Source: Dehalococcoidia bacterium
GTDB taxonomy: Bacteria > Chloroflexota > Dehalococcoidia > Lucifugimonadales > UBA3495
Direction: 5' to 3'
DNA: 64,000 bases
Assembly: GCA_965207275.1 (NCBI GenBank)
Contig: CBDBMH010000001.1
Location: 553,244-617,243, forward strand
Shown here: piece by piece, positions 40,051 through 58,600 of the stretch
Position numbering within the stretch: position 1 is the first letter of the stretch
How the letters are laid out: each line of letters begins with the position of its first letter
Made by a program: the position numbers and the translations under genes
The notes under the pieces: model-generated
What the model was told of the DNA's origin: nothing
The model's input: only the letters and a program-made list of their open reading frames with translations
The model's database searches: none

Positions 40051-40092
40051 GGCGCTAGGCTCGGCGAGGTCGGGTTTAGGGCAGGAAGAGTC

Positions 40093-41956: not shown

Positions 41957-41966
41957 GGAGGCTGAG

Positions 41967-42647
41967 ATGCCGTCGGAAGGTTCGATACGGGTGATGGTGG
42001 TGGACGACCATCCCATCGTGCTGAAGGGCCTGCGGGAGGTCCTGGAGGCGTCGGGCCGCATCGAGGTGGTGGGGCTGGCCGAGGATGGGGAGGAGGCGGT
42101 GAGGATGGCCCGGGAACTGAAACCCGACGTCATCATCATGGACGTGATCATGCACCGCATGGACGGCATCGACGCCTGCCGGGAGATCATGGAGCTCCTC
42201 CCCAGCACACGGGTGATGATGCTCACGGCGTCGACCGAGGAGGATGCGGTCATCGAGGCCATCGCGGCGGGGGCCACCGGCTACCTTCAGAAGTACTCTC
42301 GGCCCGAGGAGCTGCTGCAGGCGGTCATGGACGTGGCCGAGGACCGGCTGCGAATTCCCGACCGGGCGACCAGGCAGGTCTTCGCGATGCTCCGCAACCA
42401 GCAACAGCTCGTGTCCGCCCCGGCCCTGGACCGGCTGACCGCGCTGGAGCGGGAGACCCTCAGGCTGTTCGCCAGCGGAAAGTCCTACGCGCAGATTGCC
42501 GAGCTGCGGGGCAACAGGAACGTGACGGTGCGAAACACCCTGTACCGCATACAGGATAAGCTGAGGATCAAGACCAAGCAGGAACTGGTGATCTGGGCCG
42601 TGCGTAACGGGCTCATGGACGACATCGTGGTGGGCGAGGAACCGTAG
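41967..42647 (+). CDS. NarL/FixJ-family response regulator (REC + LuxR HTH, 226 aa)
   Basis: VMVVDDHPIV and DVIIMDVIM receiver motifs. LuxR HTH LTALERETLRLFASGKSYAQIAELRGNRNVTVRNTLYRIQDKL. GAGGAGG SD. Confidence 0.9.
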   Translation: MPSEGSIRVMVVDDHPIVLKGLREVLEASGRIEVVGLAEDGEEAVRMARELKPDVIIMDVIMHRMDGIDACREIMELLPSTRVMMLTASTEEDAVIEAIAAGATGYLQKYSRPEELLQAVMDVAEDRLRIPDRATRQVFAMLRNQQQLVSAPALDRLTALERETLRLFASGKSYAQIAELRGNRNVTVRNTLYRIQDKLRIKTKQELVIWAVRNGLMDDIVVGEEP

Positions 42648-42773
42648 CCTTAGCCGGGGGCGTCGTGGGATTGGAACCGGATGGAGGATACGTTGGGAAT
42701 CTCACTGCGAAGGCCGCCAGGGGAGAAGGGAGCATTGGAGGACTTGTTGAAATCAAGGGGAGGGTCGAGATAT

Positions 42774-43175
42774 ATGAGGTTAATACCGTCGCAGTACATA
42801 CCGCTCATAGCGCTTGCGGCAGCAGTTTGCCTGATGGCCGCAACATCTTGCGGCGGAAATGACGAGGAGAAGCAGAGGGCTGCGGAGAGGACGCCGGCGC
42901 CCCCTGCCAATGAGACCGTCCCTGGAGAGATGGAGACTGCGGCGCGCACGTTTCTGGGCGGTGAGCTGGGTGTTGACGAGGGGGGACTCAGCCTCGTCAG
43001 CTCCGAAGGGATGCAGTGGTCCGACGCCAGCCTGGGATGCCCCCAGGAGGGCATGAGGTACGCCCAGGTGATTACTCCGGGCTACAAGCTGGTCTTCGAT
43101 TTGGCGGGTGCGTCCCACGCGGTGCATACCAACTCGGACGGGTCGCACATGGTGGTCTGCGGGGACGGGCGGTAG
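42774..43175 (+). CDS. Putative lipoprotein (133 aa)
   Basis: Signal peptide plus lipobox-like IPLIALAAAVCLMAATSCGG. Last GC-rich gene before the island. Confidence 0.55.
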   Translation: MRLIPSQYIPLIALAAAVCLMAATSCGGNDEEKQRAAERTPAPPANETVPGEMETAARTFLGGELGVDEGGLSLVSSEGMQWSDASLGCPQEGMRYAQVITPGYKLVFDLAGASHAVHTNSDGSHMVVCGDGR

Positions 43176-43291
43176 GGCTGGTAGGCGATTCGGCGGGTTG
43201 GCTGAATTGACTCCGCCAATGAGCAGTGTCTTGACCAAGATGCACTGAGTAAGCTCACATCTCAGCGATTGCTGAAAGAGAGGTGAAAGAA

Positions 43292-44149
43292 ATGAGTACG
43301 CTGCCAACCGTGGGCCCAATTGGGCCGGCAGATACCCAAAGACTATTCGAAGAATTGGCCGAATTGACGTGGGGATGGCTGGCTGACGCTAGGCGCTTGG
43401 GTTTAGGGTTTTCCGAAGATACCATTTCCGACTTAGCCATGCTGGAAATTGGGCGTTCTGGCTCAAACAGCGTCGGAGTTAAGCGGGTTTCGAAGCGCCG
43501 AGAGCGGGTTGTGGGATTCGACTGGCTATGGGTGATTCTCAGGTCCGGCCGGCTACCCACGTTCTATGTTGTTCAAGCGAAGAAACTGCAACTGTACGAA
43601 AGGCCTCCATACTCATACGGAAGACTGAGGTATCCCACCGGAGCAAATTACCAAATCGACGCCCTTGAGGACTTCGCAAATTGGTTAGGTGCGGTTCCGA
43701 TGTACTGCTTCTATAACAATGTTGATGACCTGACTGCCCAATTACATTGGAATTGTCAAATACAGCGGCCCCCGAATCCTCTCCAAATGGGATGCACTCT
43801 CGCCCCTCTGGATGTGGTGCGACCAATCCATGATGGCAGAGGCCCCAAGAACTTCCACGCGATTCATTGGAGGAACCCGGAAGCTCTACCTTGGAGGTGC
43901 CTGTTTCATCCCTCTTGCGCCAGTTTCAGTTTGGGCCCAGCATCAGACAGCCACCCTATCGCAAATAGGAGTGAAGGGATGAACAGGATGCTCGAATTCC
44001 TTCCAGTATTGACCTCGGGAGACGAGGATTGGATCGACGTGGAGGAACTCGTCCGCCAACTTGACCTCGACGAATTGGTCGACAGGTATGAAAGCCGGAG
44101 TTTCACACCAATACCTGACAGGATTTTCTTTGCCAATCTGGAGGACTAG
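43292..44149 (+). CDS. Restriction-endonuclease-fold (Mrr-like D...QxK) protein, island gene 1 (285 aa)
   Basis: GAGAGG SD 8 nt before the ATG. Putative PD-(D/E)XK elements are LAMLEIG (E), VVGFDWLWVI (D) and FYVVQAKKL (QxK), followed by NYQIDALEDF. The fold call is an inference from the motif pattern. Confidence 0.45.
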   Translation: MSTLPTVGPIGPADTQRLFEELAELTWGWLADARRLGLGFSEDTISDLAMLEIGRSGSNSVGVKRVSKRRERVVGFDWLWVILRSGRLPTFYVVQAKKLQLYERPPYSYGRLRYPTGANYQIDALEDFANWLGAVPMYCFYNNVDDLTAQLHWNCQIQRPPNPLQMGCTLAPLDVVRPIHDGRGPKNFHAIHWRNPEALPWRCLFHPSCASFSLGPASDSHPIANRSEGMNRMLEFLPVLTSGDEDWIDVEELVRQLDLDELVDRYESRSFTPIPDRIFFANLED

Positions 44150-44291
44150 CTAGCTTATGCTTATCGACGGCTTTGCCAGTCCTCATCGTTTCGCGGGGTC
44201 AAGGTCCGTTGCGTCAACCAGACGGAATACGAAGGGGTCGAGACTAGGGGCACCATCCGGCAACGTGTCGAACCGTCATTTGGGGCGTGAT

Positions 44292-44314
44292 TGGTGTTGT
44301 ATAATACATCACCA
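44292..44314 (+). promoter_or_regulatory. Palindromic operator overlapping a TATAAT -10 box upstream of the HTH gene
   Basis: TGGTGTTGTAT-A-ATACATCACCA forms 11-bp arms with one mismatch. TATAAT at 44300-44305 lies inside it, about 40 nt upstream of the ATG at 44343. Confidence 0.5.
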
Positions 44315-44342
44315 CTATCGCGTCCGCGTGGACGGAGACAAC

Positions 44343-44543
44343 ATGACGATGCCAGAGGAGTTCACGGTACCCCAAGCGGCGACCTACCTCAAGGTAAGTG
44401 AGGAAACCGTCCGAAGGAACATTCGGGCGAAGCGCCTTTCGGCGCTGCGACGGGGCACCCAATGGTTCATTCCTTCCGAGGTGTTGGTGCTGTTTGCCAA
44501 CTCATACGATCCGAAGACAGGGAAGATAAAGCGGATGCTCTAG
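44343..44543 (+). CDS. Excisionase/MerR-type helix-turn-helix protein, island gene 2 (66 aa)
   Basis: FTVPQAATYLKVSEETVRRNIRAKRLSALRRGTQWFIPSEVL is the classic excisionase-family DNA-binding pattern. Confidence 0.75.
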   Translation: MTMPEEFTVPQAATYLKVSEETVRRNIRAKRLSALRRGTQWFIPSEVLVLFANSYDPKTGKIKRML

Positions 44544-44609
44544 CGCCCCTTGGCACTTGAACCCTTGGCCGCGAGGAAGTAATGCAGATCAATACGTCCG
44601 GGAAACTAC

Positions 44610-44638
44610 TTGACTCAGACTAGTGGGTGCATAAGAAT
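44610..44638 (+). promoter_or_regulatory. Candidate promoter TTGACT-17 nt-AAGAAT upstream of the GHKL operon
   Basis: The -35 TTGACT is at 44610-44615 and the weak -10 at 44633-44638, about 50 nt upstream of the GTG at 44690. Confidence 0.3.
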
Positions 44639-44689
44639 GCGCCCGCGTAACGGAGCGGCACCGACCTGCTCTCCCAGGGAGAATATCTC

Positions 44690-46564
44690 GTGAACGAACG
44701 ACCCTCATGGTACTTCCCACCTAGAGGTTGGGGACTGGATGTAATCCAAGACTCGTCCAGCACACACTTTAGGGACGACCCCATTCCAAAACTCGTCAGG
44801 GAGGTTTTGCAAAACTCCCTGGACGCTAATGACAGGGATTTAGTCGGCCCGGTAGAGGTGGAGATCGCCGAGAGCTACGTTGATGGCCGGACCATCGGTG
44901 CCAAAGAGCTGCAGAAGCACCTGGATTCGTGCTTGGAGAGGGCGAAAGAGGAAGACAGAAAAAACGTCCAAGCGTTTTACGGCAGGGCTCTGCAGGCGCT
45001 CGAGGCCGAAGAAATCCGGTGCCTTCAGGTCGTAGACGCCGGTACACTGGGACTCGTCGGCCGCAGCTGGGACGCTCTCGTGTTCCAAGAAGGATCAGTT
45101 CAGAAATCGGGGGCCGCTCCCGGTGGGTCTAACGGTGTGGGGAAAAACGCGGTGCTCAACGTAAGCGATCTTCGCACCGTGTTTTACAGCACCAGATATA
45201 TTCAACGGCGTGAAGGCAGGGTGGAAAAGCTCCAGGGCAAGGCCACCTTGATGGACCATCGCAACCCCCAGGACAAGAGCGAGAGCCTACAGCACGTTGG
45301 CTTCTATTCGATGCCTCAAGGGGAGCCGGTTTTGACTACGCAGATTCCCGGCTTTTTCCGGCTCGACGACGTGGGGACCGGTGTATTCATCATGGGATTC
45401 AACCCCAGGTCGAATGATTGGACCAGGGAAGTAACCGCTGCGGTCATCGAGAATTTCTTTCACGCCATACATCACAAGAAGCTCGTCGTCAGAGTAAAGA
45501 ACCGCATTGATGACCCCATTCTGATTAACCACGAAACCCTTGACTGGCTCTTCGAGCGTGAAAGCAGCAATAAACCGGCATTTCATTACTACAAAGCTAT
45601 CAGAGACGTGGAACCGGGGGAGACAGACCCTATCGGAAAAATTGGGCCGCTCAACGCATACGTTTTCATCGGTTCCGGTCCTCGCAGGACCGCATATATA
45701 AACCGCAATGGGATGCTAATCACCGACAGCCGTGAGCAGAAAATCAATCCAATTGCTCCGCGTGGCAAGAGCCTGTGGCCGGATTACTGTGTCGTGGTGA
45801 CGCCAGAATCCGACAGGGGAGACGAATGGATAAGGCAAACGGAGAACACAAGCCATGACTCCATGTCGCCCCGACAATGTTTCGAGGGTAGGGAGCTGAC
45901 CGAGGCGGAGCGCTGGTTCAGGCAGGCCAGAAACACAATAAGCAAGATCATTGACGATGCCGCCCAGGTGCAGAAGTACGGCGATACCACCAATCTGAGT
46001 GAGTTGGCGTCCATGTTCCCGGACGAGTTTGACCCCGAAAGCCCAGGGAACAAACTGCTGAAGACGAAGACCACCAACACTAGACTCGTAATACCCCCGT
46101 CCGTTACACCGGACCCGGAGTCTGGTCCAGATCCCGAACCGGGGCCGGGTCCGGGGCCTGACCCTGATCCTCGTCCCAATCCTGGCCCGGGACCTAGGCC
46201 AGACCCGGGACCAAATCCGAGGCCAGGGCCGGTGCCAGGCCCGGGGCCGGGCCAAAGAAGAAGCCGGCGGCCACGTATTGAACGTCCGCGCTTGATTCCC
46301 ACGGACCGGACTTCGGCTACAGTGGCGTTCACCCCAATGAGTGAAACGCCGCAGGAAATAGCCATCCGATTGAGACCGGCCGGAGGCGAGTGGGGCCAAG
46401 AAAATCCAATCGAGGTCGTGAGTGCTAAGGTCGTAAGCCCGGCGGGCCAAGAAGCCAAAATTCAAGACGGGTCGGTTCAATTGACTCCGCAATCCAACGA
46501 GCGAGTGGTGATCGAGATAGAGACCAGCGATGCGCTTGACGACTTTGCATTCAGGATAGGGTAA
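44690..46564 (+). CDS. GHKL/Bergerat-fold ATPase (Hsp90/sacsin/MORC-like), island gene 3 (624 aa)
   Basis: N-box REVLQNSLDA, DxGxG VVDAGTLGL, G-loop GGSNGVGKNA. Pro/Gly/Asp-rich linker (DNA 46108-46255), then a ~100-aa C-terminal domain. GTG start with GGGAG SD. Confidence 0.75.
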   Translation: MNERPSWYFPPRGWGLDVIQDSSSTHFRDDPIPKLVREVLQNSLDANDRDLVGPVEVEIAESYVDGRTIGAKELQKHLDSCLERAKEEDRKNVQAFYGRALQALEAEEIRCLQVVDAGTLGLVGRSWDALVFQEGSVQKSGAAPGGSNGVGKNAVLNVSDLRTVFYSTRYIQRREGRVEKLQGKATLMDHRNPQDKSESLQHVGFYSMPQGEPVLTTQIPGFFRLDDVGTGVFIMGFNPRSNDWTREVTAAVIENFFHAIHHKKLVVRVKNRIDDPILINHETLDWLFERESSNKPAFHYYKAIRDVEPGETDPIGKIGPLNAYVFIGSGPRRTAYINRNGMLITDSREQKINPIAPRGKSLWPDYCVVVTPESDRGDEWIRQTENTSHDSMSPRQCFEGRELTEAERWFRQARNTISKIIDDAAQVQKYGDTTNLSELASMFPDEFDPESPGNKLLKTKTTNTRLVIPPSVTPDPESGPDPEPGPGPGPDPDPRPNPGPGPRPDPGPNPRPGPVPGPGPGQRRSRRPRIERPRLIPTDRTSATVAFTPMSETPQEIAIRLRPAGGEWGQENPIEVVSAKVVSPAGQEAKIQDGSVQLTPQSNERVVIEIETSDALDDFAFRIG

Positions 46565-46569
46565 CGGCA

Positions 46570-47421
46570 ATGACCACCTGGAACGACAGATTGCTCCCTC
46601 ACCCTTTGTTGGCGCCTTGGACGGACGACTACCCGGAGGCGGCCTTTACGGCGCAAGTTCCGCACGCCGTGATTAACAATGGCAAGCAAATCAACTTGAC
46701 CATCAAGTATCACCTGACCAGCCAGTCGCTTCGGGACTTGATCTCAGAAGGCAAAGCCCACTACGTAAGCCTGGTGGCGTGCGCAAAGACCTTTAGCCGC
46801 AATTCCTATCCCTGCGAACACGAGGACGACCTCTGTATCCTGGACGCCCAGGACTTCTCTGAGGAACTCAAGCTCACTCCCTATGTGGTAGCCAAGCAGC
46901 CCATAGACGGATTCACGTCCTCCGAACTCGTGGACGAAATCACCCGTTTCAAGCCAGATGGGTTCCACATTCCAACAGGGTCGATACTGGCCGTCGGAAA
47001 TTCTACTGAGGTGGAGTTGGAAGAAGGGGGTAGTCCCTTTGCGGTTATCGACCTGGTTGCTGACGCCAAAGTCGAAAGCGGCACATTCAAGGTCGATCTT
47101 GATGATAACCGAATAAAAGTCTACATGGCTCCGGGGGACAAAGACCAGATCGAGGCGCTGCGTCAACACGGAGAACAAAGCTGGGAAATGGCAGTGTTGT
47201 TCCCTTCCATCTATCTCCATGCGATTTCCGAGGCGTTGCGGAACCTGGCCTACTATCCCGAAAACCGCTGGGCGCGAACCATGCAGAGGGCGCTTGAACG
47301 CCACAGCATAGTAGTTGACGAAGACGAACTGAAAGATAATGCACTTACCCACGCGCAGACCCTCATGGAGCGGCCTGTGGGGACGTTGATGAAAGCCCTC
47401 AGCCGCGAGGAGGAGGGTTAA
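46570..47421 (+). CDS. Hypothetical protein, middle gene of the GHKL/PP-loop operon (283 aa)
   Basis: 6-nt gap from the upstream gene and a TAATG overlap with the downstream gene. No motif recognised. Confidence 0.6.
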   Translation: MTTWNDRLLPHPLLAPWTDDYPEAAFTAQVPHAVINNGKQINLTIKYHLTSQSLRDLISEGKAHYVSLVACAKTFSRNSYPCEHEDDLCILDAQDFSEELKLTPYVVAKQPIDGFTSSELVDEITRFKPDGFHIPTGSILAVGNSTEVELEEGGSPFAVIDLVADAKVESGTFKVDLDDNRIKVYMAPGDKDQIEALRQHGEQSWEMAVLFPSIYLHAISEALRNLAYYPENRWARTMQRALERHSIVVDEDELKDNALTHAQTLMERPVGTLMKALSREEEG

Positions 47422-49043
47422 TGGAGATGGCTGCGCAGGAATTCCAGATTTTAAGGCTGACGCAAGAGGCATACGACCAACTCTGGTTGTTCGCTAGGGA
47501 GAATCCAAAAGCCTATCTCGACCCTGACACAGACTTCAATCGGGTCCTGCTTGACCGCGGCGTTACCGACTATGCGGAGGATACAGGGATTGTTGCTGAC
47601 AGCCCCATAAGTCTCACGCCAGTGGAGAGGGTCCCAGCGAATCGGGCAGACCGGCAGGCCTTGGACTTCCACCGTTCGATGCCAGATTTGACTCCCAGCG
47701 CCGCTACCGACAGCCTGATGTGGACCTGGATGACCCATTTCAGGTTGCACTCGTACAGTATCAAGCGCTGGCGCTTGCAGGGGGACCTGACCAATCACAT
47801 CAGGAACCACTGGTTCGTGGGAAACGAGTCGGACGCCCTACGTCAAAACAACACCGCGTCGCGTACCTGGTGGATTGCCAACACGGCGATCAAGGCAGCA
47901 AAGGCTTCGGGAGGCGCCTTCACCGAAGAGGAGGCGATAAATCATTTCGCCAATAACCCCCGCCACTACCACAACATGATGGACTCGAACTTCAGCAGAC
48001 ATCCGGTCGTATGCGCCGAAATGTTGCTGGCGCTCATGACTGAGGCTAGAGGAATCTCTGGGGTGGGTTCCGACCAAATCTGGAAACGGATGAATTTAGC
48101 CGCCGGAACCCTGCTACTGGACGCGATGCCCAGGGAGCAGCTAAGGGAGCGCATCAACCACCACATCGACGAAATAATGTCGGTCTCTGACTTCGTGACA
48201 GACCGTACCAAGCTGCGGAATCGTGTTCCTTGTCGTGTACTCAGCCTGGGGGCAGGGGTTCAATCATCCTGTCTGGCCCTGCTTGCTGAACGAGGGGAAT
48301 ATGGCCTTCCCAAGCCCGACTTTGCCATCTTCGCCGATACAGGCTGGGAACCTCAGGCCGTTTACGACCACCTAGATTGGCTCAAATCGCAGCTCTCATT
48401 TGAAGTCATTCGTGTCAACAATGGGAACATTCGGGAAAACATACTACAAGGCCGGATGCCCGACGGGTCGAGGTTTCTAGGAATTCCCGCGTTCCTGCGC
48501 AATACTGACGGAAGCACCGGTATCCTGCACCGACAATGCACGACCCACTATAAGACAAAGCCAATCCACGATTACCTCAGAGACAGGCTAGGACTAAAGC
48601 CCGGCAGGAGGGCCCCTTCCGACGTCCAAGTGGAAATGTGGCTTGGAATAAGCACCGACGAAGCGATACGACAGAAGCCCGACCAGGAGGAATGGGTCAC
48701 AAAGCGGTACCCGCTCATCGACTTGGGGTTTAGCCGAGGTCAGTTGTTGAATTGGTTCAGAGAAAATTACCCTGGCCACCATTTACCTAGCAGTTCCTGT
48801 GTCGGATGTCCGTACCACAGTGACTCGGTCTGGAAGCAGTTGAAGGAAAGCGACCCCAAATCCTTCCAGGATGCTGTCTTCATCGACCAGGCGCTACGCA
48901 ATGTCCCTATTGTAAAAGACACGGTCATAGGAGAGGCATATCTCCATCGATCAAGGACCCCGCTGTTGGAAGTGGATCTTGAGGAGATACCCAGTTATGA
49001 AGACTTAATGCTGGATGAATGCGAAGGGCTTTGCGGGATTTAG
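47421..49043 (+). CDS. PAPS-reductase-like PP-loop enzyme with a ~270-aa N-terminal helical extension, island gene 5 (540 aa)
   Basis: PP-loop variant RVLSLGAGVQSSCLALL, then FADTGWEPQAVYDH. C-terminal Cys pair SSCVGCPYHS. I do not recognise the N-terminal half. Confidence 0.75.
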   Translation: MEMAAQEFQILRLTQEAYDQLWLFARENPKAYLDPDTDFNRVLLDRGVTDYAEDTGIVADSPISLTPVERVPANRADRQALDFHRSMPDLTPSAATDSLMWTWMTHFRLHSYSIKRWRLQGDLTNHIRNHWFVGNESDALRQNNTASRTWWIANTAIKAAKASGGAFTEEEAINHFANNPRHYHNMMDSNFSRHPVVCAEMLLALMTEARGISGVGSDQIWKRMNLAAGTLLLDAMPREQLRERINHHIDEIMSVSDFVTDRTKLRNRVPCRVLSLGAGVQSSCLALLAERGEYGLPKPDFAIFADTGWEPQAVYDHLDWLKSQLSFEVIRVNNGNIRENILQGRMPDGSRFLGIPAFLRNTDGSTGILHRQCTTHYKTKPIHDYLRDRLGLKPGRRAPSDVQVEMWLGISTDEAIRQKPDQEEWVTKRYPLIDLGFSRGQLLNWFRENYPGHHLPSSSCVGCPYHSDSVWKQLKESDPKSFQDAVFIDQALRNVPIVKDTVIGEAYLHRSRTPLLEVDLEEIPSYEDLMLDECEGLCGI

Positions 49044-49084
49044 AAACTGCACATGTTCCAAATTTGTAGCTGGCAGCACAGGCG

Positions 49085-49591
49085 ATGAGCACCGACCGAG
49101 AATTCTTCGACGACATCATTTCCATTCTGCAAAAGCATAGGTTGAGGTTCGTTCATTCTCCCCAGATGTGGCAGCAGTGCAATCTGCCGGTCACCCTGGA
49201 ATGGAATTCAGTGGAATTTTCGGAGAATAACGGTGACAGCGTTCCTTCGGATAAGTTTGGAGTCTACGCCTTTATGTTGGAGCCAAATTTCGCCGGTCCG
49301 CCTAAATCCGCATATCTGCTTTATATAGGAAAAACAGGCCGGCATTTTCAGGTGAGATACAAGGAGTACCTCTACGAAGAAGATCAAGGATTTGCCCGTC
49401 CCCCGATTTCCAGAATGCTGGAAAGGTGGAGCGGACACATTTCATTTCACTATGCTCCGATTGAGGATCCGGGTTTGCTTCGTCGAACGGAAGAGGCTCT
49501 CTTAAATGCCTGTATCCCTCCATACAATCGACAGTTCACGGGAAGAGTCGGAAGGGCAATTATGGCCTTTCGGCAGGATAGCGGAGGTTAA
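49085..49591 (+). CDS. Stand-alone GIY-YIG nuclease-like protein, island gene 6 (168 aa)
   Basis: GIY element FGVYAF. YIG element YLLYIGKTGRHFQVRYKEY with the conserved Arg. Distal EEALLNACIPPYN (Glu/Asn). Confidence 0.65.
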   Translation: MSTDREFFDDIISILQKHRLRFVHSPQMWQQCNLPVTLEWNSVEFSENNGDSVPSDKFGVYAFMLEPNFAGPPKSAYLLYIGKTGRHFQVRYKEYLYEEDQGFARPPISRMLERWSGHISFHYAPIEDPGLLRRTEEALLNACIPPYNRQFTGRVGRAIMAFRQDSGG

Positions 49592-49597
49592 TCCGAC

Positions 49598-50917
49598 ATG
49601 ACAACTTCATCGTCAACAAAACTCTTGCCCGCAATCCAAGGAAAGATAGGAGACTGGTACTACTATATGACCACGTTGCCTCTTTCTGAAGTTGCAGAAA
49701 GAGTCCAGCCAGCCCGTGAGTTAGTAACTCCGAAGGACATGAACGAGTGGATTCAACGAGAGGTAATTCCAACCCACATCCGACAGATAGCGGATTACCT
49801 CATGCACCGAGAACAGCATTTCTTCCCTGCCATCGTGGTTGGGGTTTACCTTGGAGAGCCAACTTGGCATGAAATTAACATAGAGGAAAATGCCCTCTTC
49901 GAGACTCCAGCCCTCGACCCCAGGTCGAGGTCCACCCTTGGCTTACTGGAACTGGATGGTACGGAGCGGTTGTACGCAATAGATGGTCAGCACCGCGTAG
50001 CGGGAATAAAGAAGGCGCTTGCCCGTTTAACCAAAGCGAATGATACTGAAGGCTATAACCGTCTGGCCAGTGAAGATCTGGCGGTAGTTTTTGTTTCCGC
50101 AGATATCGATAGGGAAGGCCAACGTGAACGAGTGCGCAGGCTATTTACTACTCTTAACAAGCAAGCGAAAAGGGTAACCGAGCCTGAAATCGTCGCCCTC
50201 GATGAGGACGACCCCGCTGCGATAGTTACTCGTTGGATCGCGATTCGCTATTCTGGATTGAAGGCGTTCAACCAAAACGGGAGTGAATCTGACCACAATC
50301 TCATTCAGTTGGGAAGGCAACACGAGATACGGCCGAACAATCGACGGAGCGTCACGACCATTGTAACTCTGTACCGCATGATAAAGAATGCGTTCCAGTT
50401 GGAACTCAAGGAAATCGCAGCAGAAAATAATCACGGTCGGCCTGCCGAAGAAACGCTAGAGAACCTCTACTCCAAGGCCGAGGCGCTATGGGATATGCTA
50501 AGGCTCTACGATCCGGCACTAGGCTATGTGTTGGCGTCCGACCCAAGTGATGAGCGCGCCGCAGCGTACCGCACCCTAGAAGGGGGACACATGCTGTTCC
50601 GTCCTGTAGGTTTGCAAGCGTTTTCTGGGGCTTTGGGGGTACTACGCGTGAGGGGGGTAGATACGGACTTAGCGGTAAGAAGCCTGTGCCGCCTACCGAC
50701 GGAGATCTCAATACCGCCTTGGGAGCACGTAGTTTGGAATCCCAGCACCCGCGGCATGATTACAGCGAACAGGACTCTGGCCGAAGCGCTATACCTTCAC
50801 ATGGTGGGGGAACGACCTCGGACGCTGAGGTATCCGATAGGAACTAAATACCGGGAGGCACTCGGCATACGAAACGGAGACCCATTGCAACAGGTAACGG
50901 TATTTGGGCTGGAGTAG
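49598..50917 (+). CDS. DGQHR-domain protein (DndB/DpdB-like ParB-fold), island gene 7 (439 aa)
   Basis: Exact motif LYAIDGQHRVAGI. N-terminal GKIGDWYYYMTTLPLSEVA...REV..THIRQIADYL resembles DndB-type proteins. Confidence 0.8.
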   Translation: MTTSSSTKLLPAIQGKIGDWYYYMTTLPLSEVAERVQPARELVTPKDMNEWIQREVIPTHIRQIADYLMHREQHFFPAIVVGVYLGEPTWHEINIEENALFETPALDPRSRSTLGLLELDGTERLYAIDGQHRVAGIKKALARLTKANDTEGYNRLASEDLAVVFVSADIDREGQRERVRRLFTTLNKQAKRVTEPEIVALDEDDPAAIVTRWIAIRYSGLKAFNQNGSESDHNLIQLGRQHEIRPNNRRSVTTIVTLYRMIKNAFQLELKEIAAENNHGRPAEETLENLYSKAEALWDMLRLYDPALGYVLASDPSDERAAAYRTLEGGHMLFRPVGLQAFSGALGVLRVRGVDTDLAVRSLCRLPTEISIPPWEHVVWNPSTRGMITANRTLAEALYLHMVGERPRTLRYPIGTKYREALGIRNGDPLQQVTVFGLE

Positions 50918-51147
50918 CCCTTCCTAGAACGGTTAACGTGCTAGTCCGTGTCTAGGTACACGTTGCGGAGGGTCTGTTAAACGGTCGTGGCCGTAAACGT
51001 GAGGTATCAAGGATTAGTCAGCATTTCTACTGGCTGCGCAGAGCCATAGTCCATGCTTTGACGCACCTCCTTCACAGGATGATCGCTCATATTCAGGGAT
51101 TGTCCTGATGACCCGAGGTATATCCCAGTTCCGAGGAGGCCCCGATA

Positions 51148-54100
51148 ATGGCGGGAACAGAAACCTTGAAAGATTTGTCGCGTGTTCAATCCTCCGTTGA
51201 TCGACTGGTCAATGCGTCAGAGGACCAACTGCCATCGGCCTTTGAGGAATTATCCCGGTCGATTCTTGAACACTATGGCGTAACTTACGACTCGACGGCC
51301 ACCAGTAAATTGTTCTCTCGTGATTTGCCTTTACCGGTTCAGAGCTTTGCGGCTACTTGGCTGGTTCGCTGCCTGACCAGGTCTTCCTCGGCACTCAGAT
51401 TTGGACATACTGAGCGACTAGCAGCCGACCTGTTCGACCAAATCTTCCAACACAATGTTTACCAGCGCGCCAACATTGACCATCGACAGCAGACTTTTGA
51501 GAAGTTACGAGCTTTAGAAGGGCATTTGCATTCGATATTGATTGATGCCGAAGGGCTGGTGTCAGTCTCTCCAAATCTAGGTCAGCTTAACTCCTTCCTT
51601 CAAAGACTATTGGCCTTCTTAAATCATCGTGGGAATCAACCTTTTCTAACCCACCTTTTGCCCGCTCCGTTGCTTCATCAGTCCCGAATCGCCAATTTGT
51701 TTCAAGTTGTAGCCGACTACGCTGACAATCTAGACGGTGATCCCATTCATAAGCGCGATGCTGCAGTGGAAGCTTGTGAGGAATTCGAAAGGGAGGCGCA
51801 GGAATTCGGCACTATAGATGCCGAGCGCATTCTAGGTGCCCTAGCCCGGCAGCTCAAGTCGGCTGTAGAGAGCCATTTCGAATCTTCGGAATCGGGCAAG
51901 AGCCCGACCCTTGCGTTCGGCCCCATTAGCAAGAAATATCCTTTGGAAAGGGTTAGTGAGACTGTTTCCTTCAGAATCAAAGTGGACAATCACGGCACCG
52001 GTCCGGCAAGGGACTTGAGGCTTGATGGAGTCGCAGTCGACGAGTGTCTTCTTATTCAGGCTTCCTCCATTGGTCTTGGAACCCTACAGCCCGGGGATTC
52101 CTTGGTCTTCGACATCGTGGCAAGTGTGGTTGCACCTTCCTCAGGGGCAACAATGGTGGCAGAATTTTCCTGGAGTTCGCCCGGGGGGAGGGTAGGGGAA
52201 ACCCACACTTTCGAAGTTCCTGCGCAACGAGGGGATGTTAATTGGGTTTCAGTAGAGCTCACTGAGCCTTATTCGCTGGAGCCAGTAGCCACAGAGGACG
52301 ATCTTATTGGCCGGAAGGCAGAGCTGACCCGCTTGCTTCGACTGGCCAACAGCCGGACAGTCGGGTCTGGGTTCATCTTTGGTCAAAAGAGAGTAGGCAA
52401 GACATCACTGGCTAACGCTGTTGAAGAGAGCCTTGAATCGAGTTCTGACATCAAATGGGTCGTGATAAACAAGGGTAGCGGGGATTACGTAGGAGACGAT
52501 GCTCATAGCAGTCTGCGAACGATGGGAGAAGTCCTGGCAGAAGCTATCATAGACCGAGTACCACATCTGAATGACACACCTATCCCGGACTTTACCAGTG
52601 GGCTCTCTCCTCTGTCTCGTTTGGTAGATCAAGCTCTCGTCCAAGGAGACCTGCGAATTCTATTCATTTTGGATGAATTCGATGAGTTGCCACCCGAGCT
52701 GTTCAGACGGACTGATCTGGCGACGGCTCTGTTTCAGCCACTGCGCCAGATAAGCAACAAACGAGGTTGTGGGTTCCTCTTGGTAGGGGGAGAAAGTATG
52801 CAGCAAATTGTCAATTCTCAAGGGGATCGCCTCAACAAATTCACTCCCATTGAACTAGACTACTTCACCAGATCAAACAACTGGAATGATTTCGTCGAGC
52901 TCATTAGGAGGCCAGTACAGGATTGGTTGACCATAAGCGATGGCGCTCTTGAGGAACTTTTCACTTCCAGTGCAGGGAATCCGTATTTCGCCAAGCTGTT
53001 GGCACGCCAACTGTTTGCAGATATGGTCGACAATCGCTATAGCGATGCGAGTGAAGTGGATATGGGTACTGCGATAGACCATACACTGTCCACAATTGGA
53101 GCCAACTCTTTCGCTCACTTCTGGACTGACGGTTTAGCCCAATCCCCTAACAACGCGGAAGAGATACGCATAACCAGGCGATCAGTCTTGATTGCAGCTG
53201 GCCGGGCCTTTCGGAAAAACCCTTTTGTCAACTATGAAGGCATTTGGGAGGAATTCAAGCACGCAGCCGGGTTGCCGGTAGAGGAACAGCGTTTTCGGAT
53301 TACATTGCAAGACTTCCTTCGTCGGAAGATATTTGTGGAGGATGAAGCTGGCGGCGTTAGTCCCAAGATTCCGCTATTTCGGTCTTGGCTGATGGACAAA
53401 GGGGTTAGAGACCTATTGGAGGATTCTCAAGAGCTAGATTACTTGAGGTCCAGGCTGCAAGAAGAAGAGGAAGTGCGGGTAACGGACGGTGAAATCTTGT
53501 GTCTCTCCGAGCGTCTGGAGAATTTCCGCTATCGCGGCCGCGCTATTGAGACGACGGCGATTAGGAGATGGCTCGGGCAATTCGACGGCCCCAGGGAACA
53601 GCGGTTGATGTTCCGGTTGGCATCGGCCGTGAGGTGTTACGACGAAGATGCCGTTCGGACCAAAATGCGCGAGGCCTTCGGTATCGTAATGCGGAATATG
53701 CGTACCGTAATCGAGCCAAGGGCAAGGGTACGCAATGACATCCTAGTTAGCCCTCTGGATGATTCACCGGCTAAGTCGGGATCGACCTATTGCCGACTGT
53801 TCGTCAGTGAGAACAGATTATCGACTAATTCAGTTCATACTCTGGAATCGCTGGAGCGAAGGTTTCCAACTAATAATGAGGTTCAACGCCTTGTGCTCAT
53901 TGATGATTTCTCTGGTACAGGGGCGACTTTGGCTGGCGGACTGAAACGGCATTCAGACCTTCTTCGCCGCCTGAACTCGGAGGGCGTCCGTATAATTGTC
54001 ATAGCCTTGGTAGGATTTTCGGAAGCCCGCGAACACATCGAGCACTTTGTCGAGCAGGCAGGAATCGAGGCTGATGTCTATTTCTGCGACGAGTTGGGCC

Positions 54101-54330
54101 CAGAACATAGAGCTTTCTCAGAGTCCTCCTCTATCTTTCCAGAGGTCGCTGAACGGGACCTTGCCAGACAAATTGCAGAGTCCAGGGGTGTGGCACTAGA
54201 GCGGAGGTTCCCCCTCGGGTACCAAGACACACAAGGGTTGATCGTCTTTCACCAAAGTTGTCCAAATAACACGTTGCCAATCTTTTGGTCTCGGAATGGG
54301 GATTGGAATCCATTGTTTCCGCGCATCTAA
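51148..54330 (+). CDS. Multidomain P-loop (STAND/ORC-like) NTPase with a beta-sandwich module and a C-terminal phosphoribosyltransferase domain, island gene 8 (1060 aa)
   Basis: Walker A GQKRVGKTSLANA and Walker B RILFILDEFDEL, preceded by LIGRKAELTRL. CARDB-like stretch KVDNHGTGPARDLRL...LGTLQPGDSLVFDI. PRPP-binding loop RLVLIDDFSGTGATLAGG. GAGGAGG SD. Confidence 0.75.
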   Translation: MAGTETLKDLSRVQSSVDRLVNASEDQLPSAFEELSRSILEHYGVTYDSTATSKLFSRDLPLPVQSFAATWLVRCLTRSSSALRFGHTERLAADLFDQIFQHNVYQRANIDHRQQTFEKLRALEGHLHSILIDAEGLVSVSPNLGQLNSFLQRLLAFLNHRGNQPFLTHLLPAPLLHQSRIANLFQVVADYADNLDGDPIHKRDAAVEACEEFEREAQEFGTIDAERILGALARQLKSAVESHFESSESGKSPTLAFGPISKKYPLERVSETVSFRIKVDNHGTGPARDLRLDGVAVDECLLIQASSIGLGTLQPGDSLVFDIVASVVAPSSGATMVAEFSWSSPGGRVGETHTFEVPAQRGDVNWVSVELTEPYSLEPVATEDDLIGRKAELTRLLRLANSRTVGSGFIFGQKRVGKTSLANAVEESLESSSDIKWVVINKGSGDYVGDDAHSSLRTMGEVLAEAIIDRVPHLNDTPIPDFTSGLSPLSRLVDQALVQGDLRILFILDEFDELPPELFRRTDLATALFQPLRQISNKRGCGFLLVGGESMQQIVNSQGDRLNKFTPIELDYFTRSNNWNDFVELIRRPVQDWLTISDGALEELFTSSAGNPYFAKLLARQLFADMVDNRYSDASEVDMGTAIDHTLSTIGANSFAHFWTDGLAQSPNNAEEIRITRRSVLIAAGRAFRKNPFVNYEGIWEEFKHAAGLPVEEQRFRITLQDFLRRKIFVEDEAGGVSPKIPLFRSWLMDKGVRDLLEDSQELDYLRSRLQEEEEVRVTDGEILCLSERLENFRYRGRAIETTAIRRWLGQFDGPREQRLMFRLASAVRCYDEDAVRTKMREAFGIVMRNMRTVIEPRARVRNDILVSPLDDSPAKSGSTYCRLFVSENRLSTNSVHTLESLERRFPTNNEVQRLVLIDDFSGTGATLAGGLKRHSDLLRRLNSEGVRIIVIALVGFSEAREHIEHFVEQAGIEADVYFCDELGPEHRAFSESSSIFPEVAERDLARQIAESRGVALERRFPLGYQDTQGLIVFHQSCPNNTLPIFWSRNGDWNPLFPRI

Positions 54331-54660
54331 TAGAGGTTTGTGGAAATCCATCGGTAGCGCGAAGCGCCGTTGCATACACGCATTCAAAAGTCCTACTGCT
54401 GCTCAATCCGTCAATCGGGAGTTTCTAGTACAACCGTCTTCCAGTTTGGTATTATAGGGTCACTAGCATCTCGAAGATGGTACTGTCTACCGTCAAGTCC
54501 GGCCCACCAAGCTGGATAAAATCAAGAACTTTCCACATCAGGTTCGCCCTGGACTTGTAGGCGCCCTTGGCCGCGCCCACTGTGAGGCCGCGTTTGGCCC
54601 TGCTGGTGGCAAAGGCGGCGAGGCGGTTGCAAACGGCCAATCACTGCACGGCAACCAAGC

Positions 54661-54693
54661 GAGACCGCCCCGGTAATCCGCCGGGGCGGTCTC
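54661..54693. terminator. Perfect 13-bp-stem hairpin (GAGACCGCCCCGG/CCGGGGCGGTCTC)
   Basis: Seen directly in the sequence. Lies downstream of the minus-strand gene ending at 54872. No clear U-tract. Confidence 0.4.
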
Positions 54694-54871
54694 CTGCCGG
54701 TCATGCCGGCAAAGAAGGACATTGCCGTTCCCCTGGCCGCGCCGCGCCGGGGGTCGCCGGGCCGCCACGTCCCCAGGTTGCCTTCCCTGCCGCGTGGCAG
54801 GGCAATGACCGCCGGCGAATTCGCCGCGTCCCGCAAGCCGGCTCACCGGCAGGTTCGGGGCGCTTCCCCGC

Positions 54872-55408
54872 TCATCCGGAGCGGCGCATCCTGGCCCACA
54901 GCCGGAGCGTTCCGCCAGCGCATACCGCCGCCAGGGTCGCCGCGATCAGTACCGTCTTGACCAGGGTGAGCGCCGCCGCCAGCCAGGCCAGCGGAGACGG
55001 CGCCCCGTCGTGGCTCAGGGCCAGCGCCGCCACCGTGACGTTCTCCAGCATATCCGCCGCGGCCAGGGCCAGCGGCAGCAGGTGCAGCGGCGCTCCGCCG
55101 CGAAAGAGCCGGAACAGGATGATAGCGAAAAGCAGGCCGTAGCAGGCCGGAAACGCCATGTCGACGGTCAACGCGGTGATGGCGTAGACGGCCCGAGCGC
55201 CGGCGTCGAGGCCGTCCAGGGCGTCGAACAGGGCCGCCGCCTCCCCGGGCGTGTACCAGCCCCGGCCGTCGAGCAGGTCCAGCCCGCCCAGTCGTACCTG
55301 GCGCCAGGCCAGGCCCGCCACGCAGCCGGCGACGCCCGCCAATGTCGCCGCCGCTACGGGCCAGTTGGCGCACCGCTCCACCGTCCCGCCCACCGACAAT
55401 GCCATCAT
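54872..55408 (-). CDS. Small polytopic membrane protein (178 aa)
   Basis: AGGAGGAG SD before ATGATG at 55408. Has 4-5 hydrophobic helices. The longer ORF reaching 55609 is judged an extension. Confidence 0.55.
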   Translation of the reverse strand: MMALSVGGTVERCANWPVAAATLAGVAGCVAGLAWRQVRLGGLDLLDGRGWYTPGEAAALFDALDGLDAGARAVYAITALTVDMAFPACYGLLFAIILFRLFRGGAPLHLLPLALAAADMLENVTVAALALSHDGAPSPLAWLAAALTLVKTVLIAATLAAVCAGGTLRLWARMRRSG

Positions 55409-55595
55409 CTCCTCCTGACCGGCCGGGCGCGCCGCCGTTTCCAGGGAGCTTCGCATTCCACCGCCGTCCTCCGGCGCCCTACCCGGAGCCACCTGGCCGA
55501 GACCAACCCGGCGGCGGACCTTGCGCACTAGTCTATCACGTCCGCGCGCCCACCGGCCGCAAGTCCTCGCCGGGCCGGAGGCGCGGGCAAGGGGA

Positions 55596-55622
55596 GGGGC
55601 CGGCAGCATCGCCGCCGGCCCC
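55596..55622 (-). terminator. GC-rich hairpin downstream of giant gene 55658..61396
   Basis: GGGGCCGGC/GCCGGCCCC stem. A near-identical hairpin follows the paralogous gene at 61644-61672. Confidence 0.5.
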
Positions 55623-55657
55623 CTTGCCTCGTGCTGGCTGTCCGGCCAGGCCCCGGG

Positions 55658-58600
55658 CTAGTCGTCGTCCACGATGGTCATGGTTCCCACCGCGTCGGGC
55701 GGGTGGTAGTTCCCGGGCAGGAACGCCTCCACCGCGAAGTACTCGTCCGGCTCGTCGTCCTCGTCCTGCTCCAGCCACACCTCCGCCGTCAGCACCGTCA
55801 CTCCCGGCTTGAACACCAGTTCTCCCTCCGCCGGCTGGTAGTCGGACCGGTGCGCCCGGTCGTCCAGCAGGTGGTAGGCCGGCGCGGTGTACCACCGCAC
55901 CCGGATCTCCTCGGTGGGCGCCGCCGACAGCGCCACCCGGAACTCCAGCACGTCGCCCTCCACCGCCGAGGCGTCCGCCACGGTCACGCTGATCTCCACC
56001 TCCGGGGCCGCGTCGTCGTTGTCGGCCACGGCCACCGTGGCCGCGCCCTGGGTCGAGGACACCGTGTAGTCGCTGCCCGCGTTCACCGTCGCCGTCACCG
56101 ACCCGTCGGTCTCGTCCGCGCTATCGTCCGTGGTGCCAACGGTCAGGGTGACGCTGCCCGTGGTGGGGACGGTCACCGTGCGCTGTCCCGTGGCCGCGCC
56201 GTAGTCGCCGGTCTGGGTGACCGTGACCTTCACGTCCAAGTTGGACGCCGGCGCCGGGCTGGCGCTGACGGTGAAGCTCGCGCTCCCGCCCTCGGTGATC
56301 CCGCCGCCCCCGCTGACGCTCACCACCGGGGTGGGGGCGTCGTCGTCGTCGGACACGGCCACCGTGGCCGCGCCCTGGGACGAGGACACCGTGTAGCCGC
56401 TGCCGGCGTTCACCGTGGCCGTGACCGAGCCGTCGGCCTCGTCGGCGTCGTCGTCGGTGGTGCCCACGGTGAGGGTGACGCTGCCCGAAGTGGGGACGGT
56501 CACCGTGCGCTTGCCGGTGGTGGCGCCGTAGTCGCCGCTCTGGGACACCGTGACGCTGACGTCCAGGTTGGACGCCGGGGCCGGGCTGGCGGTCACCGTG
56601 AAGACGGCGTCGCCGCCCTCGGTGATCCCGCTGCCGCCGCTGCCGCTCACCACCGGCGTGGGGGCGTCGTCGTTGTCGGCCACGCCGACCGTGGCCGCGC
56701 CCTGGGACGAGGACACCGTGTAGCCGCCGCCGGCGTTCACCGTGGCCGTCACCGACCCGTCGGCCTCGTCGGCGCTGTCGTCGGTGGTGCCGACGGTGAT
56801 GGTGACGCTGCCCGAAGTGGGGATCGTCACCGTGCGCTTCCCCGTGGCCGCCCCGTAGTCGCCGCTCTGGGACACCGTCGCGCTCACGTCCAGGTTGGAC
56901 GCCGGGGCCGGGCTGGCCGTCACCGTGAAGACGGCGTCCCCGCCCTCGGTCACCCCGCTGCCCGCGCTGACGCTCACCACCGGCGTGGGGGCGGCGTCGT
57001 CGTCGGACACGGCCACCGTGGCCGCGCCCTGGGTCGAGGACACGGTGTAGCCGCTGCCCGCGTTCACCGTGGCCGTCACCGACCCGTCGGTCTCGTCGGC
57101 GCTGTCGTCCGTGGTGCCGACGGTGAGGGTGACGCTGCCCGTGGTGGGGATGGTCACCGTCCGCTGGCCCGTGGCCGCGCCGTAGTCGCCGCTCTGGGAG
57201 ACCGTGACGCTGACGTCCAGGTTGGCCGAAGGCGCCGGGCTGGCGGTCACCGTGAAGACGGCGTCGCCGCCCTCGGTCACCCCGCTGCCGCCGCTGACGC
57301 TCACCTCAGGCGTGGGCGGCGGCGGAGGCGTCTGTGCCGCCTCCGCTTCCAGGGCGGTCAGCTCGACGACCACCAGGTCCCACACCGGGCTGCTGTGATT
57401 GTCGGCCATGTCCTGCGCCTCGGCCGCCGTCATCGGGCCGCCGGTGACGCCGGTGCCGTCGTGCTTGCCGAAGGCCAGCAGCACCCGGTTCCAGCGGTTA
57501 ACGTGGGCCGTCCCGTGCTGCGTCTGCGACGCCAGCTCCCTGACCTTCGCGATCACGTCCGGGTCCACCGTGTAGCCCGTCTGCTCCTCGACGACCGGGT
57601 CGTCGTTGTCTGCGACGCCGACCGTCTCCGACGACGGCGCCCCCACCGTGTAGCCGCTGCCCGCGTTGACGGTCAGCGTGACCGAGCCGTCGGCCTCGTC
57701 CACCTCGTCGTCCGTGGTGGCGATGGTCACCGTGGCGCTGCCCGACGTTGGGATGGTGACGCTGGCGGGCAGCGTCCCGTACCCGAAGTCCCCGGTCGTG
57801 GCGACCGTGACGCTCACCGCCAGGTCCGCCGCCGGGGCCGGGCTGGCCGTCACCGTGAAGACGGCGTCCCCGCCCTCGGTCACCCCGCTGCCCGCGGTGA
57901 CGCTCACCTCCGGCGTGGGGGCGGCGTCGTCGTCCAGCAGCGGCAACGTGACGCGGGAAGGGTCGCCCAGCGTGTAGCCCTCGCCGACCACAATTTGCGC
58001 CACCAGCGTGCCGTCGGACAGCGCGTCGTCGTCGGAGTAGGCGATGATGGTCTGCGATGCGGACGACTCGAAGGCCTTGATGACCAGCGTGAGGAACTGT
58101 TCACGCGCGACGCGGTCCGCACCCTCGCCCATCTCCTCGATAACGCTCACGATGACCGGCGTGTCGACCGGCGGGACCGGGCTGGCGCTGACCGTGAAGG
58201 TCACGTCGCCGCCCTCGGCCGCCGACAGCGCGTTGCTGGAGAGCGTCATCGTGGAGCCGTCGTTGAGCGTCCCCAGCGCCGAGAACGCGCGGCGGATCTC
58301 CGGCGGCGCAGTGGACGGCGGCGTGAACTGGTTGCAGTCCACCTTGACGCTGAACTTGTTCGACGGCCAGCCGGACGGCGACTGCAACTGCACGCAGAAC
58401 GTCACGGCCTCCCCCGGCACCTCGTCGTTGCGCAGGGTCACCGGCGTGATCGTGATCCGGTAGACCGGGTCGCCGGGGTTCGAGCGGTCGCGGTACGTGG
58501 TCTTCAGGCCGGTGTTGACGATGCCCGCCCTGTACGGCTCCTGGTTGACCACGCCGTCGTGCCCGATGACCCGGTCAACACGCCGCGAGTAGATGTACGT

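Follow-up and report, generated by a model that had tools for sequence, protein, structure and literature searches.

A single-chain NTPase-phosphoribosyltransferase fusion with a retron type III-A-like effector domain, a candidate immune protein on a foreign island of a Dehalococcoidia genome

We analyzed a 64,000-nt stretch of a Dehalococcoidia genome (contig CBDBMH010000001.1, positions 553,244 to 617,243; hereafter, the window), with the focus on a gene at positions 51148..54330 of its forward strand that encodes a fusion of a P-loop NTPase with a phosphoribosyltransferase (PRTase) domain at the C-terminus. Judging by its sequence, the PRTase domain belongs to the effector clade of type III-A retrons; the fusion gene has been acquired horizontally, and its homologues are scattered among defense and mobile-element genes of distant taxa with no conserved partner. 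The interpretation that we favor, and to which we assign a probability of roughly 0.6, is that the fusion is a self-contained, single-protein anti-phage or, more broadly, anti-mobile-element immune protein, an ATPase-switched PRTase that would cause abortive infection via the pools of phosphoribosyl pyrophosphate (PRPP) and nucleotides.

The fusion gene is a complete, ATG-started open reading frame (ORF) of 1060 codons plus a stop codon, separated by a 230-nt gap from the upstream ORF, which ends at position 50917. Both the coordinates and the gap agree with the initial annotation, which had been made by reading the DNA without database searches, and every motif quoted there was found at the expected position. 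A Shine-Dalgarno-like GAGGAGG, read from the sequence (51133..51139, + strand), lies 8 nt 5' of the ATG. A protein identical to the fusion is already on record (P0001), and 110 clusters of homologues were found, at identities from 83% down to 26%, most of them of about 1056-1075 aa and alignable with it end to end. Given the motifs, the identical record and these 110 clusters, the ORF is an intact, real gene rather than a chance frame. Scans for terminators and for promoters, the latter with a sigma-70 model in what is probably a Chloroflexota host, yielded nothing beyond the expectation from shuffled sequences, and nothing in the 230-nt gap. When the upstream regions of close homologues were aligned, no more than patchy conservation emerged, as in TTCACAGGAT, roughly 70 nt upstream, and it is not interpretable.

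Profile searches combined with structure prediction, the parsing strategy that the initial annotation had proposed, resolved the protein into five modules, all encoded on the + strand. Whether its C-terminal domain is a PRTase at all had been set beforehand as a refuting test. That domain (residues 796-1060; 53533..54327), identified with Pfam, PADLOC and BLASTP, is a full-length PRTase-CE domain (PF24390; E=4e-46, 158.3 bits against a cut-off of 27), with residues 805-1059 covering profile positions 1-253 of 253, and it is matched by all five PADLOC models of PRTase_III-A, with E-values from 6e-36 to 1e-12. The canonical PRPP-binding loop claimed for this domain is indeed there, with its DD..G.G pattern in the segment RLVLIDDFSGTGATL (residues 913-927). 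The core of the loop, VLIDDFSGTGATL (residues 915-927; 53890..53928), conforms to the hhhhDDxxxTGxT pattern, reading L-V-L-I-D919-D920-F-S-G-T-G-A-T; in an alignment of 66 homologues of 26-83% identity, on which all invariance figures given here are based, D919, G923 and G925 never vary, and at least 90% of the sequences keep D920. Farther downstream lies a second signature, G1024-x14-P1039-N-N-T-L-P1044 (54217..54279), in which G1024, P1039, N1041, L1043 and P1044 are invariant and which is common to the retron-associated PRTases, for which the Gx14PNN..P motif has been defined (PMC12746101). The protein ends with ...PNNTLPIFWSRNGDWNPLFPRI. In the full-length AlphaFold2 model, which was built on 66 full-length homologues (mean predicted local distance difference test score (pLDDT) 87.1, predicted template modeling score 0.67), DSSP places strands of the C-terminal domain at residues 865-869, 914-922, 948-957, 975-983 and 1032-1034, alternating with helices.

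The relationship to retrons extends over the entire domain. A tblastn search of plasmids retrieved a Bacillus plasmid gene that is scored as PRTase_III-A by PADLOC (1e-121) and that is part of a genuine retron because it adjoins an RT_III-A reverse transcriptase (RT; 2e-140). BLASTP aligned residues 797-1059 of the fusion with this retron PRTase across the whole domain (E=3e-20), and the aligned block, PLGY..TQ....F....PNN.LPIFW....W.P.FPR, keeps the Bacillus motif PNNLLP in register. The search of PDB sequences returned no significant match to a solved PRTase; alignments of the PRPP loop with the solved adenine and orotate PRTases (APRT and OPRT) are weak (E about 0.4-0.9) and confined to the loop, and the Pfam matches to Pribosyltran and PRTase_2 are weak as well. 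Because solved PRTases match just at the PRPP loop, and non-significantly, we place the domain in the retron III-A/PRTase-CE clade rather than with ShosT- or ComF-like proteins. The domain had been read initially as a toxic defense effector, with ShosT as the example: the kind of effector stands, and its nearest relatives are those of type III-A retrons, not ShosT. A relationship to ShosT or ComF was rejected on several grounds: the PRTase alignments are confined to the loop, PADLOC matched no ShosT model up to E=1, no ShosT chain turned up when PDB sequences were searched at permissive thresholds, and the match to the NCBIfam comF model is very weak (E=0.21). The NCBIfam model DS32_1 matches the conserved C-terminal motif (E=8.6e-4; residues 1022-1059, that is, 38 residues). 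The name of the Pfam family suggests that PRTase-CE is catalogued as an effector.

Upstream of the effector, the P-loop NTPase core (residues 386-572; 52303..52863) was recognized through the Pfam model AAA_22 (E=5e-9), the only NTPase model to exceed its cut-off, and through structural similarity to SSO1545. ATPase_2 (3e-6; 27.7 bits against a cut-off of 33.2) and AAA_16 (4e-5; 24.7 bits against 32.6) fell below theirs, and the NACHT match is weak (E=0.14). In the Foldseek comparison of the whole model, the best match was 2fna_A (SSO1545, an Arch_ATPase; E=8e-10, target-normalized TM-score (TMt) 0.67), followed by archaeal ORC2 (3e-9) and Cdc6, ORC4 and RuvB; the resistosomes of nucleotide-binding leucine-rich repeat receptors (NLRs) also match the NTPase, at lower rank. 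The segment LIGRKAELTRL (residues 386-396) contains a GR motif that is invariant ahead of the P-loop; it is followed by the Walker A motif GQKRVGKTS (residues 412-420; 52381..52407), with G412, R415, V416, G417, K418, T419 and S420 invariant, and by the Walker B motif LFILDEFDE (residues 505-513, L514 being next; 52660..52686), with D509 and E510 invariant and D512 and E513 conserved in at least 90%. Together with the PRPP loop, this invariance predicts that both the ATPase and the PRTase are catalytically competent.

The core continues into a helical lid and a winged-helix region (residues 573-665; 52864..53142), delineated from the conservation alignment and from DSSP of the AlphaFold2 model, the lid having an invariant, GxP-like G610-N-P612 and the winged-helix region invariant residues H657, W659 and D661. 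G610-N-P612 and H657 are candidates for the GxP motif and the nucleotide-contacting histidine of STAND-type NTPases. Lid and winged helix are presumably both included when Foldseek aligns the model with SSO1545, ORC and Cdc6, because these alignments span 412-443 columns, more than the 187-residue core. The initial description of the P-loop as resembling ORC and the signal transduction ATPases with numerous domains (STAND) is borne out in that the Walker motifs are present and SSO1545, ORC and Cdc6 are the structural neighbors; a firm STAND assignment does not follow, given the NACHT E-value, the sub-cut-off ATPase_2 and AAA_16 scores and the lack of a repeat sensor. The helical repeats that had been described after the NTPase turned out to be the lid, the winged helix and a helical linker, with no recognizable repeats: in the Pfam scan, no tetratricopeptide (TPR), leucine-rich (LRR) or WD40 repeat family matched, and in the AlphaFold2 model the winged helix is followed by no more than a short helical linker. 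This linker (residues 666-795; 53143..53532) contains, by DSSP, a small beta-hairpin and possibly a second winged helix; it had no family match in the profile scans, and its mean pairwise identity is 38%. No PADLOC model for Avs or bNACHT matched the fusion protein.

The N-terminus consists of two modules. The first, an all-alpha domain (residues 10-250; 51175..51897), is the candidate sensor or specificity module; as anticipated from the roughly 250-aa helical region read in the sequence, the model contains helices only, from 11 to 246, mostly with pLDDT above 90, and a separate AlphaFold2 model of residues 1-383 reached a pLDDT of 87.6. This domain had no match in the Pfam, PADLOC and NCBIfam profile scans, and Foldseek searches of PDB and BFVD found no convincing fold neighbor (the Brr2 Sec63 unit, Integrator and STAT, at a TM-score of about 0.2). 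The second module is an immunoglobulin (Ig)-like beta-sandwich (residues 255-360; 51910..52227), for which DSSP of the AlphaFold2 models assigns 7-8 strands between 255 and 359 and which carries an NxGxGxA motif (N281, G283, G285, A287). The sandwich thus exists as foreseen, but its sole family signal is a weak match to Pfam DUF11 (E=0.08), and Foldseek returns generic Ig-like folds (TRAP-beta, NBR1 FW, a FixG-related protein) at TMt 0.44-0.53; moreover, it is not an insert, as had been thought, since it precedes the NTPase rather than interrupting it. The N-terminal modules are the least conserved, with mean pairwise identities of 33% for the all-alpha domain, the most variable part of the family, and 36% for the sandwich, whereas the NTPase reaches 54% and the PRTase 47%. 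A profile search for the N-terminal module in other architectures returned only fragments of the same family and, hence, gave no evidence of effector swapping on the sensor-NTPase chassis.

The fusion gene lies at the right-hand end of a low-GC island of about 11 kb (43200..54540, no strand assigned), with a GC content of 0.48-0.58 compared to 0.63-0.76 in the flanks, or about 0.52 compared to about 0.68 for the genome; the island is foreign, and the gene arrived by horizontal transfer. A pattern scan of species-representative genomes yielded 174 confirmed loci, of which 80 were kept for context analysis (81 with the window). These 80 are spread sporadically over many bacterial phyla and some archaea: the closest are metagenome-assembled genomes of Chloroflexota/Dehalococcoidia (49-61% identity), and the other groups include Acidobacteriota, Cyanobacteria, Planctomycetota, Bacteroidota, Pseudomonas, Bradyrhizobium, Paraburkholderia and Mesorhizobium. 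When the PRTase domain alone was used as the query, 2020 representatives of 50%-identity clusters were retrieved at E<=0.001; among the best 150 hits, 145 were newly retrieved, 87 of these 145 are at least 1000 aa long, and 84 of the 87 have a Walker A motif, the shorter ones being mostly gene fragments. Full length is reached by at least 87 of the 50%-identity clusters. In databases, the homologues are labeled 'ATP-binding protein' or 'PRTase-CE domain-containing protein'. The phage and plasmid collections contained stand-alone relatives of PRTase-CE only, and no fusion.

The gene neighborhoods are those of a defense gene. Seven homologue contexts contain, variously, type I CRISPR-Cas with GmrSD, a Dpd cluster, TIR/ThsB with a relaxase, SIR2 with a methyltransferase (MTase)-HNH protein, HATPase_c_3, and many transposases. 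Among the 121 immediate neighbors at the 80 loci, the commonest PADLOC families are mad2, GajB, components of type I, II, IIG and IV restriction-modification systems, and PbeA, in a plain tally of matches. When the flanking ORFs were compared with one another by BLAST, no family turned up at more than 5 of the 81 loci, and those that reach 5 mostly reflect synteny among closely related Dehalococcoidia; because no flanking family recurs more widely, the fusion behaves like a unit of one gene. In distant taxa, it and its homologues recur in variable defense contexts, the pattern by which defense islands are recognized. A biosynthetic rather than a defense context had been named beforehand as a refuting point; the homologues are found among defense and mobile-element genes, and no biosynthetic setting was encountered.

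In the mechanism that we envisage, the N-terminal alpha domain and the Ig-like module would recognize an invader-derived cue, and this recognition would release the central ORC/Arch_ATPase-type (STAND-like) NTPase for ATP binding and oligomerization. Type I PRTases are normally dimeric; oligomerization would gather the C-terminal PRTase-CE domains and turn their activity on. The active PRTase might then use up PRPP or otherwise disturb the nucleotide pools, as has been reported for the effector of Retron-Eco11, such that phage replication would be halted and the infected cell sacrificed. In Retron-Eco11, mutation of the PRPP motif abolishes defense, and activation is accompanied by a decrease in PRPP of about 50% (P=0.04) along with abortive infection (PMC12746101). 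The initial annotation had proposed a one-protein system acting by abortive infection or nucleotide depletion: the single-gene defense effector is supported by the absence of a conserved neighbor, by the PRTase-CE assignment and by the genomic context, whereas sensing and depletion are steps that we infer.

Several considerations weigh against this interpretation. N-terminal sensing, activation by oligomerization, PRPP depletion and the abortive outcome are all conjectural steps. The evidence for PRPP depletion is modest in the Retron-Eco11 homologue itself, given a 50% drop at P=0.04, and this homologue is only 23% identical. ATPase matches dominate the Foldseek list for the whole model, which leaves the fold of the PRTase domain a putative one. 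'ORC/STAND-like' is a fair label for the NTPase, with STAND membership only partly shown. The structural matches of the N-terminal region are uninformative, and its variability could merely reflect weaker constraint. Neither PADLOC v2 nor NCBIfam (June 2026) contains a model for the full-length fusion. Finally, any substrate named for this clade of PRTases is tentative; ShosT bound PRPP but none of the purines that were tried.

The last point leads to the foremost alternative, namely, that the fusion is a defense protein whose PRTase-CE domain harms through its product rather than through consumption of PRPP, by transferring phosphoribose onto a specific target (a DNA or RNA nucleobase, a nucleotide such as ATP, or a protein) or by making a toxic or signaling nucleotide. 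The PRTases of Ter systems have been proposed to be makers of signaling nucleotides, and ShosT binds PRPP, with the acceptor not known. The validated two-gene system DS-32 combines a PRTase with a NADAR protein that resembles the ADP-ribosyl-glycohydrolase antitoxin DarG, a pairing that hints at a reversible modification, and DS32_1 is the model that matches the C-terminal motif of the fusion at E=8.6e-4. In addition, PNN..P and W..P.F.R, both invariant and clade-specific, are situated outside the PRPP loop, which suggests a specialized acceptor site. However, the match to DS32_1 extends over just 38 residues, the fusion family has no conserved neighbor that is NADAR-like or could otherwise act as a reversing partner, and PRPP was the sole significantly altered metabolite among the 14 quantified in Retron-Eco11 (PMC12746101). 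On balance, we regard action through a product as unlikely, if worth keeping in view. A related but more far-reaching proposal is that the fusion represents a new class of single-chain immune receptor, in which the alpha and Ig-like modules, not described before, would directly recognize a phage protein or one of a conjugative element, ATP would drive assembly, and the PRTase would phosphoribosylate a specific macromolecular or nucleotide target instead of simply draining PRPP. This reading, which we hold to be rather improbable, would, if true, bring a new effector chemistry to NLR-like immunity and also explain the effectors of type III-A retrons and DS-32.

A different line of evidence comes from conjugation genes. 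The stretch at 4678-15085 of the window holds genes for VirB4/TraG, TrbL/VirB6 and a primase, and DNA 73-81% identical to positions 415-7182 of the window is located directly beside homologues of the fusion in five Dehalococcoidia loci (at about 900-7700 in L012, L015, L017 and L022, and at 12058-18410 in L072). The fusion family thus looks like recurrent cargo of one conjugative-element family, and the gene might even be an accessory of such an element, involved in DNA processing, entry exclusion, or maintenance and addiction, with the PRTase-like domain binding nucleic acid in a ComFC-like manner and the ORC-like NTPase and winged helix acting on DNA. The resemblance of the NTPase to the DNA-binding ORC/Cdc6 and RuvB families and the very weak ComF match (E=0.21) speak for such a role. 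However, the conjugation module is missing from most homologue loci in other phyla and, as noted, no neighbor family exceeds 5 of the 81 loci, so cargo of an integrative and conjugative element (ICE) is the better description than a function in conjugation; and because ICEs commonly carry defense genes, the adjoining module is no argument against immunity. Furthermore, conservation of the catalytic DD of the PRPP loop (D919 invariant, D920 in at least 90%) points to an enzyme and not just a binding module, and the nearest homologues of the effector are proven defense effectors, all of which makes a conjugation accessory distinctly improbable. A regulated PRTase of core metabolism, involved in housekeeping or regulatory nucleotide salvage, is hardly credible: the PRPP loop is canonical, the Pribosyltran and PRTase_2 models match weakly and APRT and OPRT align weakly, but the likeness to salvage PRTases is limited to that loop, the gene sits on a low-GC foreign island, the neighbors in the family vary and are rich in defense and mobile-element genes, and its distribution across phyla is sporadic, with most genomes lacking it.

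The remainder of the island encodes other putative defense functions. At its left edge (43283-44543), a 288-aa DUF6615 protein is encoded, along with a 128-aa helix-turn-helix protein of the excisionase family (TIGR01764, E=2e-8). Family scans next identified the candidate defense system PDC-M33 and the genes that follow it (44690-50917): components A (624 aa, E=1e-65), B (283 aa, 7.5e-36) and C (540 aa, 6e-11; a DUF6339 protein with an SspD-like C-terminal part), then a 168-aa ORF without an assigned function and a 439-aa DGQHR/DndB-like protein. This stretch could be a DNA-modification-type defense cluster in an unusual arrangement. For the island, we detected no tRNA genes and no convincing flanking direct repeats, and within it no integrase.

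Outside the island, the conjugation genes of the window encode a VirB4/TraG P-loop protein (4678-6939, - strand), TrbL/VirB6 (9405-11066, - strand) and a CHC2 and Toprim primase (13799-15085, + strand). Between these genes and the island lie a DDE_Tnp_1_4 transposase (26198-27721, E=4e-33) and an NYN-domain protein (30790-32142, 4e-9); an NYN gene also adjoins the fusion homologue in locus L004. The genes at 40577-42647, adjoining the island on its left, encode a histidine kinase (HisKA_3) and a response regulator of the LuxR type. Relatives of this pair (66% nucleotide identity) occur at L002 and L003 (17459-18620), near a 76%-identical homologue of the fusion on another metagenomic contig, which also has repeats of a giant-protein gene (window 33049-34018); these common surroundings suggest related host genomes or related insertion regions. 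The region of the fusion gene is flanked by giant ORFs of 2456 aa (32657-40027, - strand) and 1912 aa (55658-61396, - strand); the latter has no Pfam match at 1e-5, and homologue loci have large Cadherin/fn3 proteins in similar positions. Long opposite-strand ORFs also occur in the high-GC DNA, for example, at 55631-59449 (+ strand). Where the kinase and regulator genes overlap, there is a 23-nt GC-rich inverted repeat (41644-41737) whose arms are 96% complementary and 48 nt apart; its only Rfam match is a sub-threshold, spurious one to a miRNA.

Two further stand-alone relatives of PRTase-CE were observed beyond the fusion family. On the Rhizobium beringeri plasmid pRlX2 (L090, 5341-10069), a 318-aa PRTase_III-A-like protein (2e-34) is encoded in one operon together with CARF6-type proteins (2e-118) and an MTase-like protein, with a SIR2 gene nearby; this is another non-retron setting for a PRTase-CE effector, which may be under the control of CARF signaling. 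In Staphylococcus phage SA 1306 Kay (OR844994.1), the unannotated segment 104245-104835 is PRTase-CE-like, with 26% identity to residues 871-1059 of the fusion (E=8e-8).

If the fusion is, as we favor, a self-contained ATPase-switched immune protein, its implications reach beyond the locus itself. PRTase-like effectors, such as those of type III-A retrons, ShosTA, DS-32 and Ophion, are among the least understood toxic modules of bacterial immunity, and a one-polypeptide, ATPase-controlled form that dispenses with an RT, a noncoding RNA (ncRNA) and an antitoxin would offer a simpler handle on how such effectors are switched and how they act. NLR/STAND-like single-protein defense would gain both an effector that targets nucleotide precursors and a candidate sensor composed of alpha and Ig-like modules rather than repeats. 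Recurrent carriage on a conjugative element of Chloroflexota hints that the protein takes part in conflicts among mobile elements, and the family, diverse and present in many phyla including archaea, is nevertheless annotated merely as 'ATP-binding protein'.

Among known systems, the closest with respect to the effector are the type III-A retrons, represented by Retron-Eco11. The fusion shares with their effectors a PRTase that is homologous over its whole length, with the DD..G.G PRPP loop and the Gx14PNN..P...W.P.F.R signature, as well as location in defense contexts. In retrons, however, the effector has a C-terminal winged helix and is controlled by the RT and its multicopy single-stranded DNA (msDNA), whereas here the PRTase forms the C-terminal end of the protein and is presumably controlled by the NTPase. 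The locus is not a retron, since there is no RT among the ORFs of the island or in the seven homologue contexts, and an Rfam scan of positions 40000-57000 found no relevant ncRNA; retron identity was rejected on these grounds, the fusion locus and the homologues examined being devoid of RT, ncRNA and msDNA.

The other defense systems that employ PRTase-family proteins are more distant. ShosTA resembles the fusion in using a PRTase-family domain as a toxic effector acting on nucleotide metabolism, and ShosT has been found to bind PRPP but none of the purines tested; ShosT differs in having an N-terminal pyrophosphatase domain and a separate DprA-like antitoxin, ShosA, neither of which is present here: PADLOC matched no ShosA model up to E=1, and the island scans revealed no DprA-like neighbor. 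DS-32 (PRTase and NADAR, found with DefensePredictor) and Ophion, with OpnC, are likewise validated defense systems, and DS-32 shares the C-terminal motif region with the fusion, but only over 38 residues at E=8.6e-4; unlike the fusion, both are multi-gene systems without a fused NTPase. With respect to the switch, the nearest structures to residues ~386-665 are SSO1545/Arch_ATPase (PF01637) and ORC/Cdc6, which have in common with the fusion the GR-x-E helix ahead of the P-loop, the lid and the winged helix, but are only 12-15% identical to it, lack an effector or an Ig-like domain and have no link to defense.

In overall organization, the fusion resembles Avs/AVAST and bNACHT proteins, in which a single polypeptide likewise unites an enzymatic effector with a putative sensor and with a P-loop NTPase that has a lid and a winged helix, and which are encoded by single genes in defense islands. 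In contrast to these, the fusion matches no Avs or NACHT model, with SSO1545 and ORC/Cdc6 as the nearest relatives of its NTPase; the modules come in the reverse order, from an N-terminal putative sensor to a C-terminal effector; and the putative sensor consists of alpha and Ig-like modules instead of TPR, LRR or WD40 repeats. We found no description of a PRTase effector in the STAND/NLR-like class of defense proteins, or of an NTPase-PRTase fusion, in the literature searched, where the term 'PRTase-CE' likewise returned no papers. That bacterial immunity should reshuffle known effectors and sensor-switch modules is expected, and the fusion of an ORC/STAND-like switch with a retron type III-A-like effector would be one more variation on this theme.

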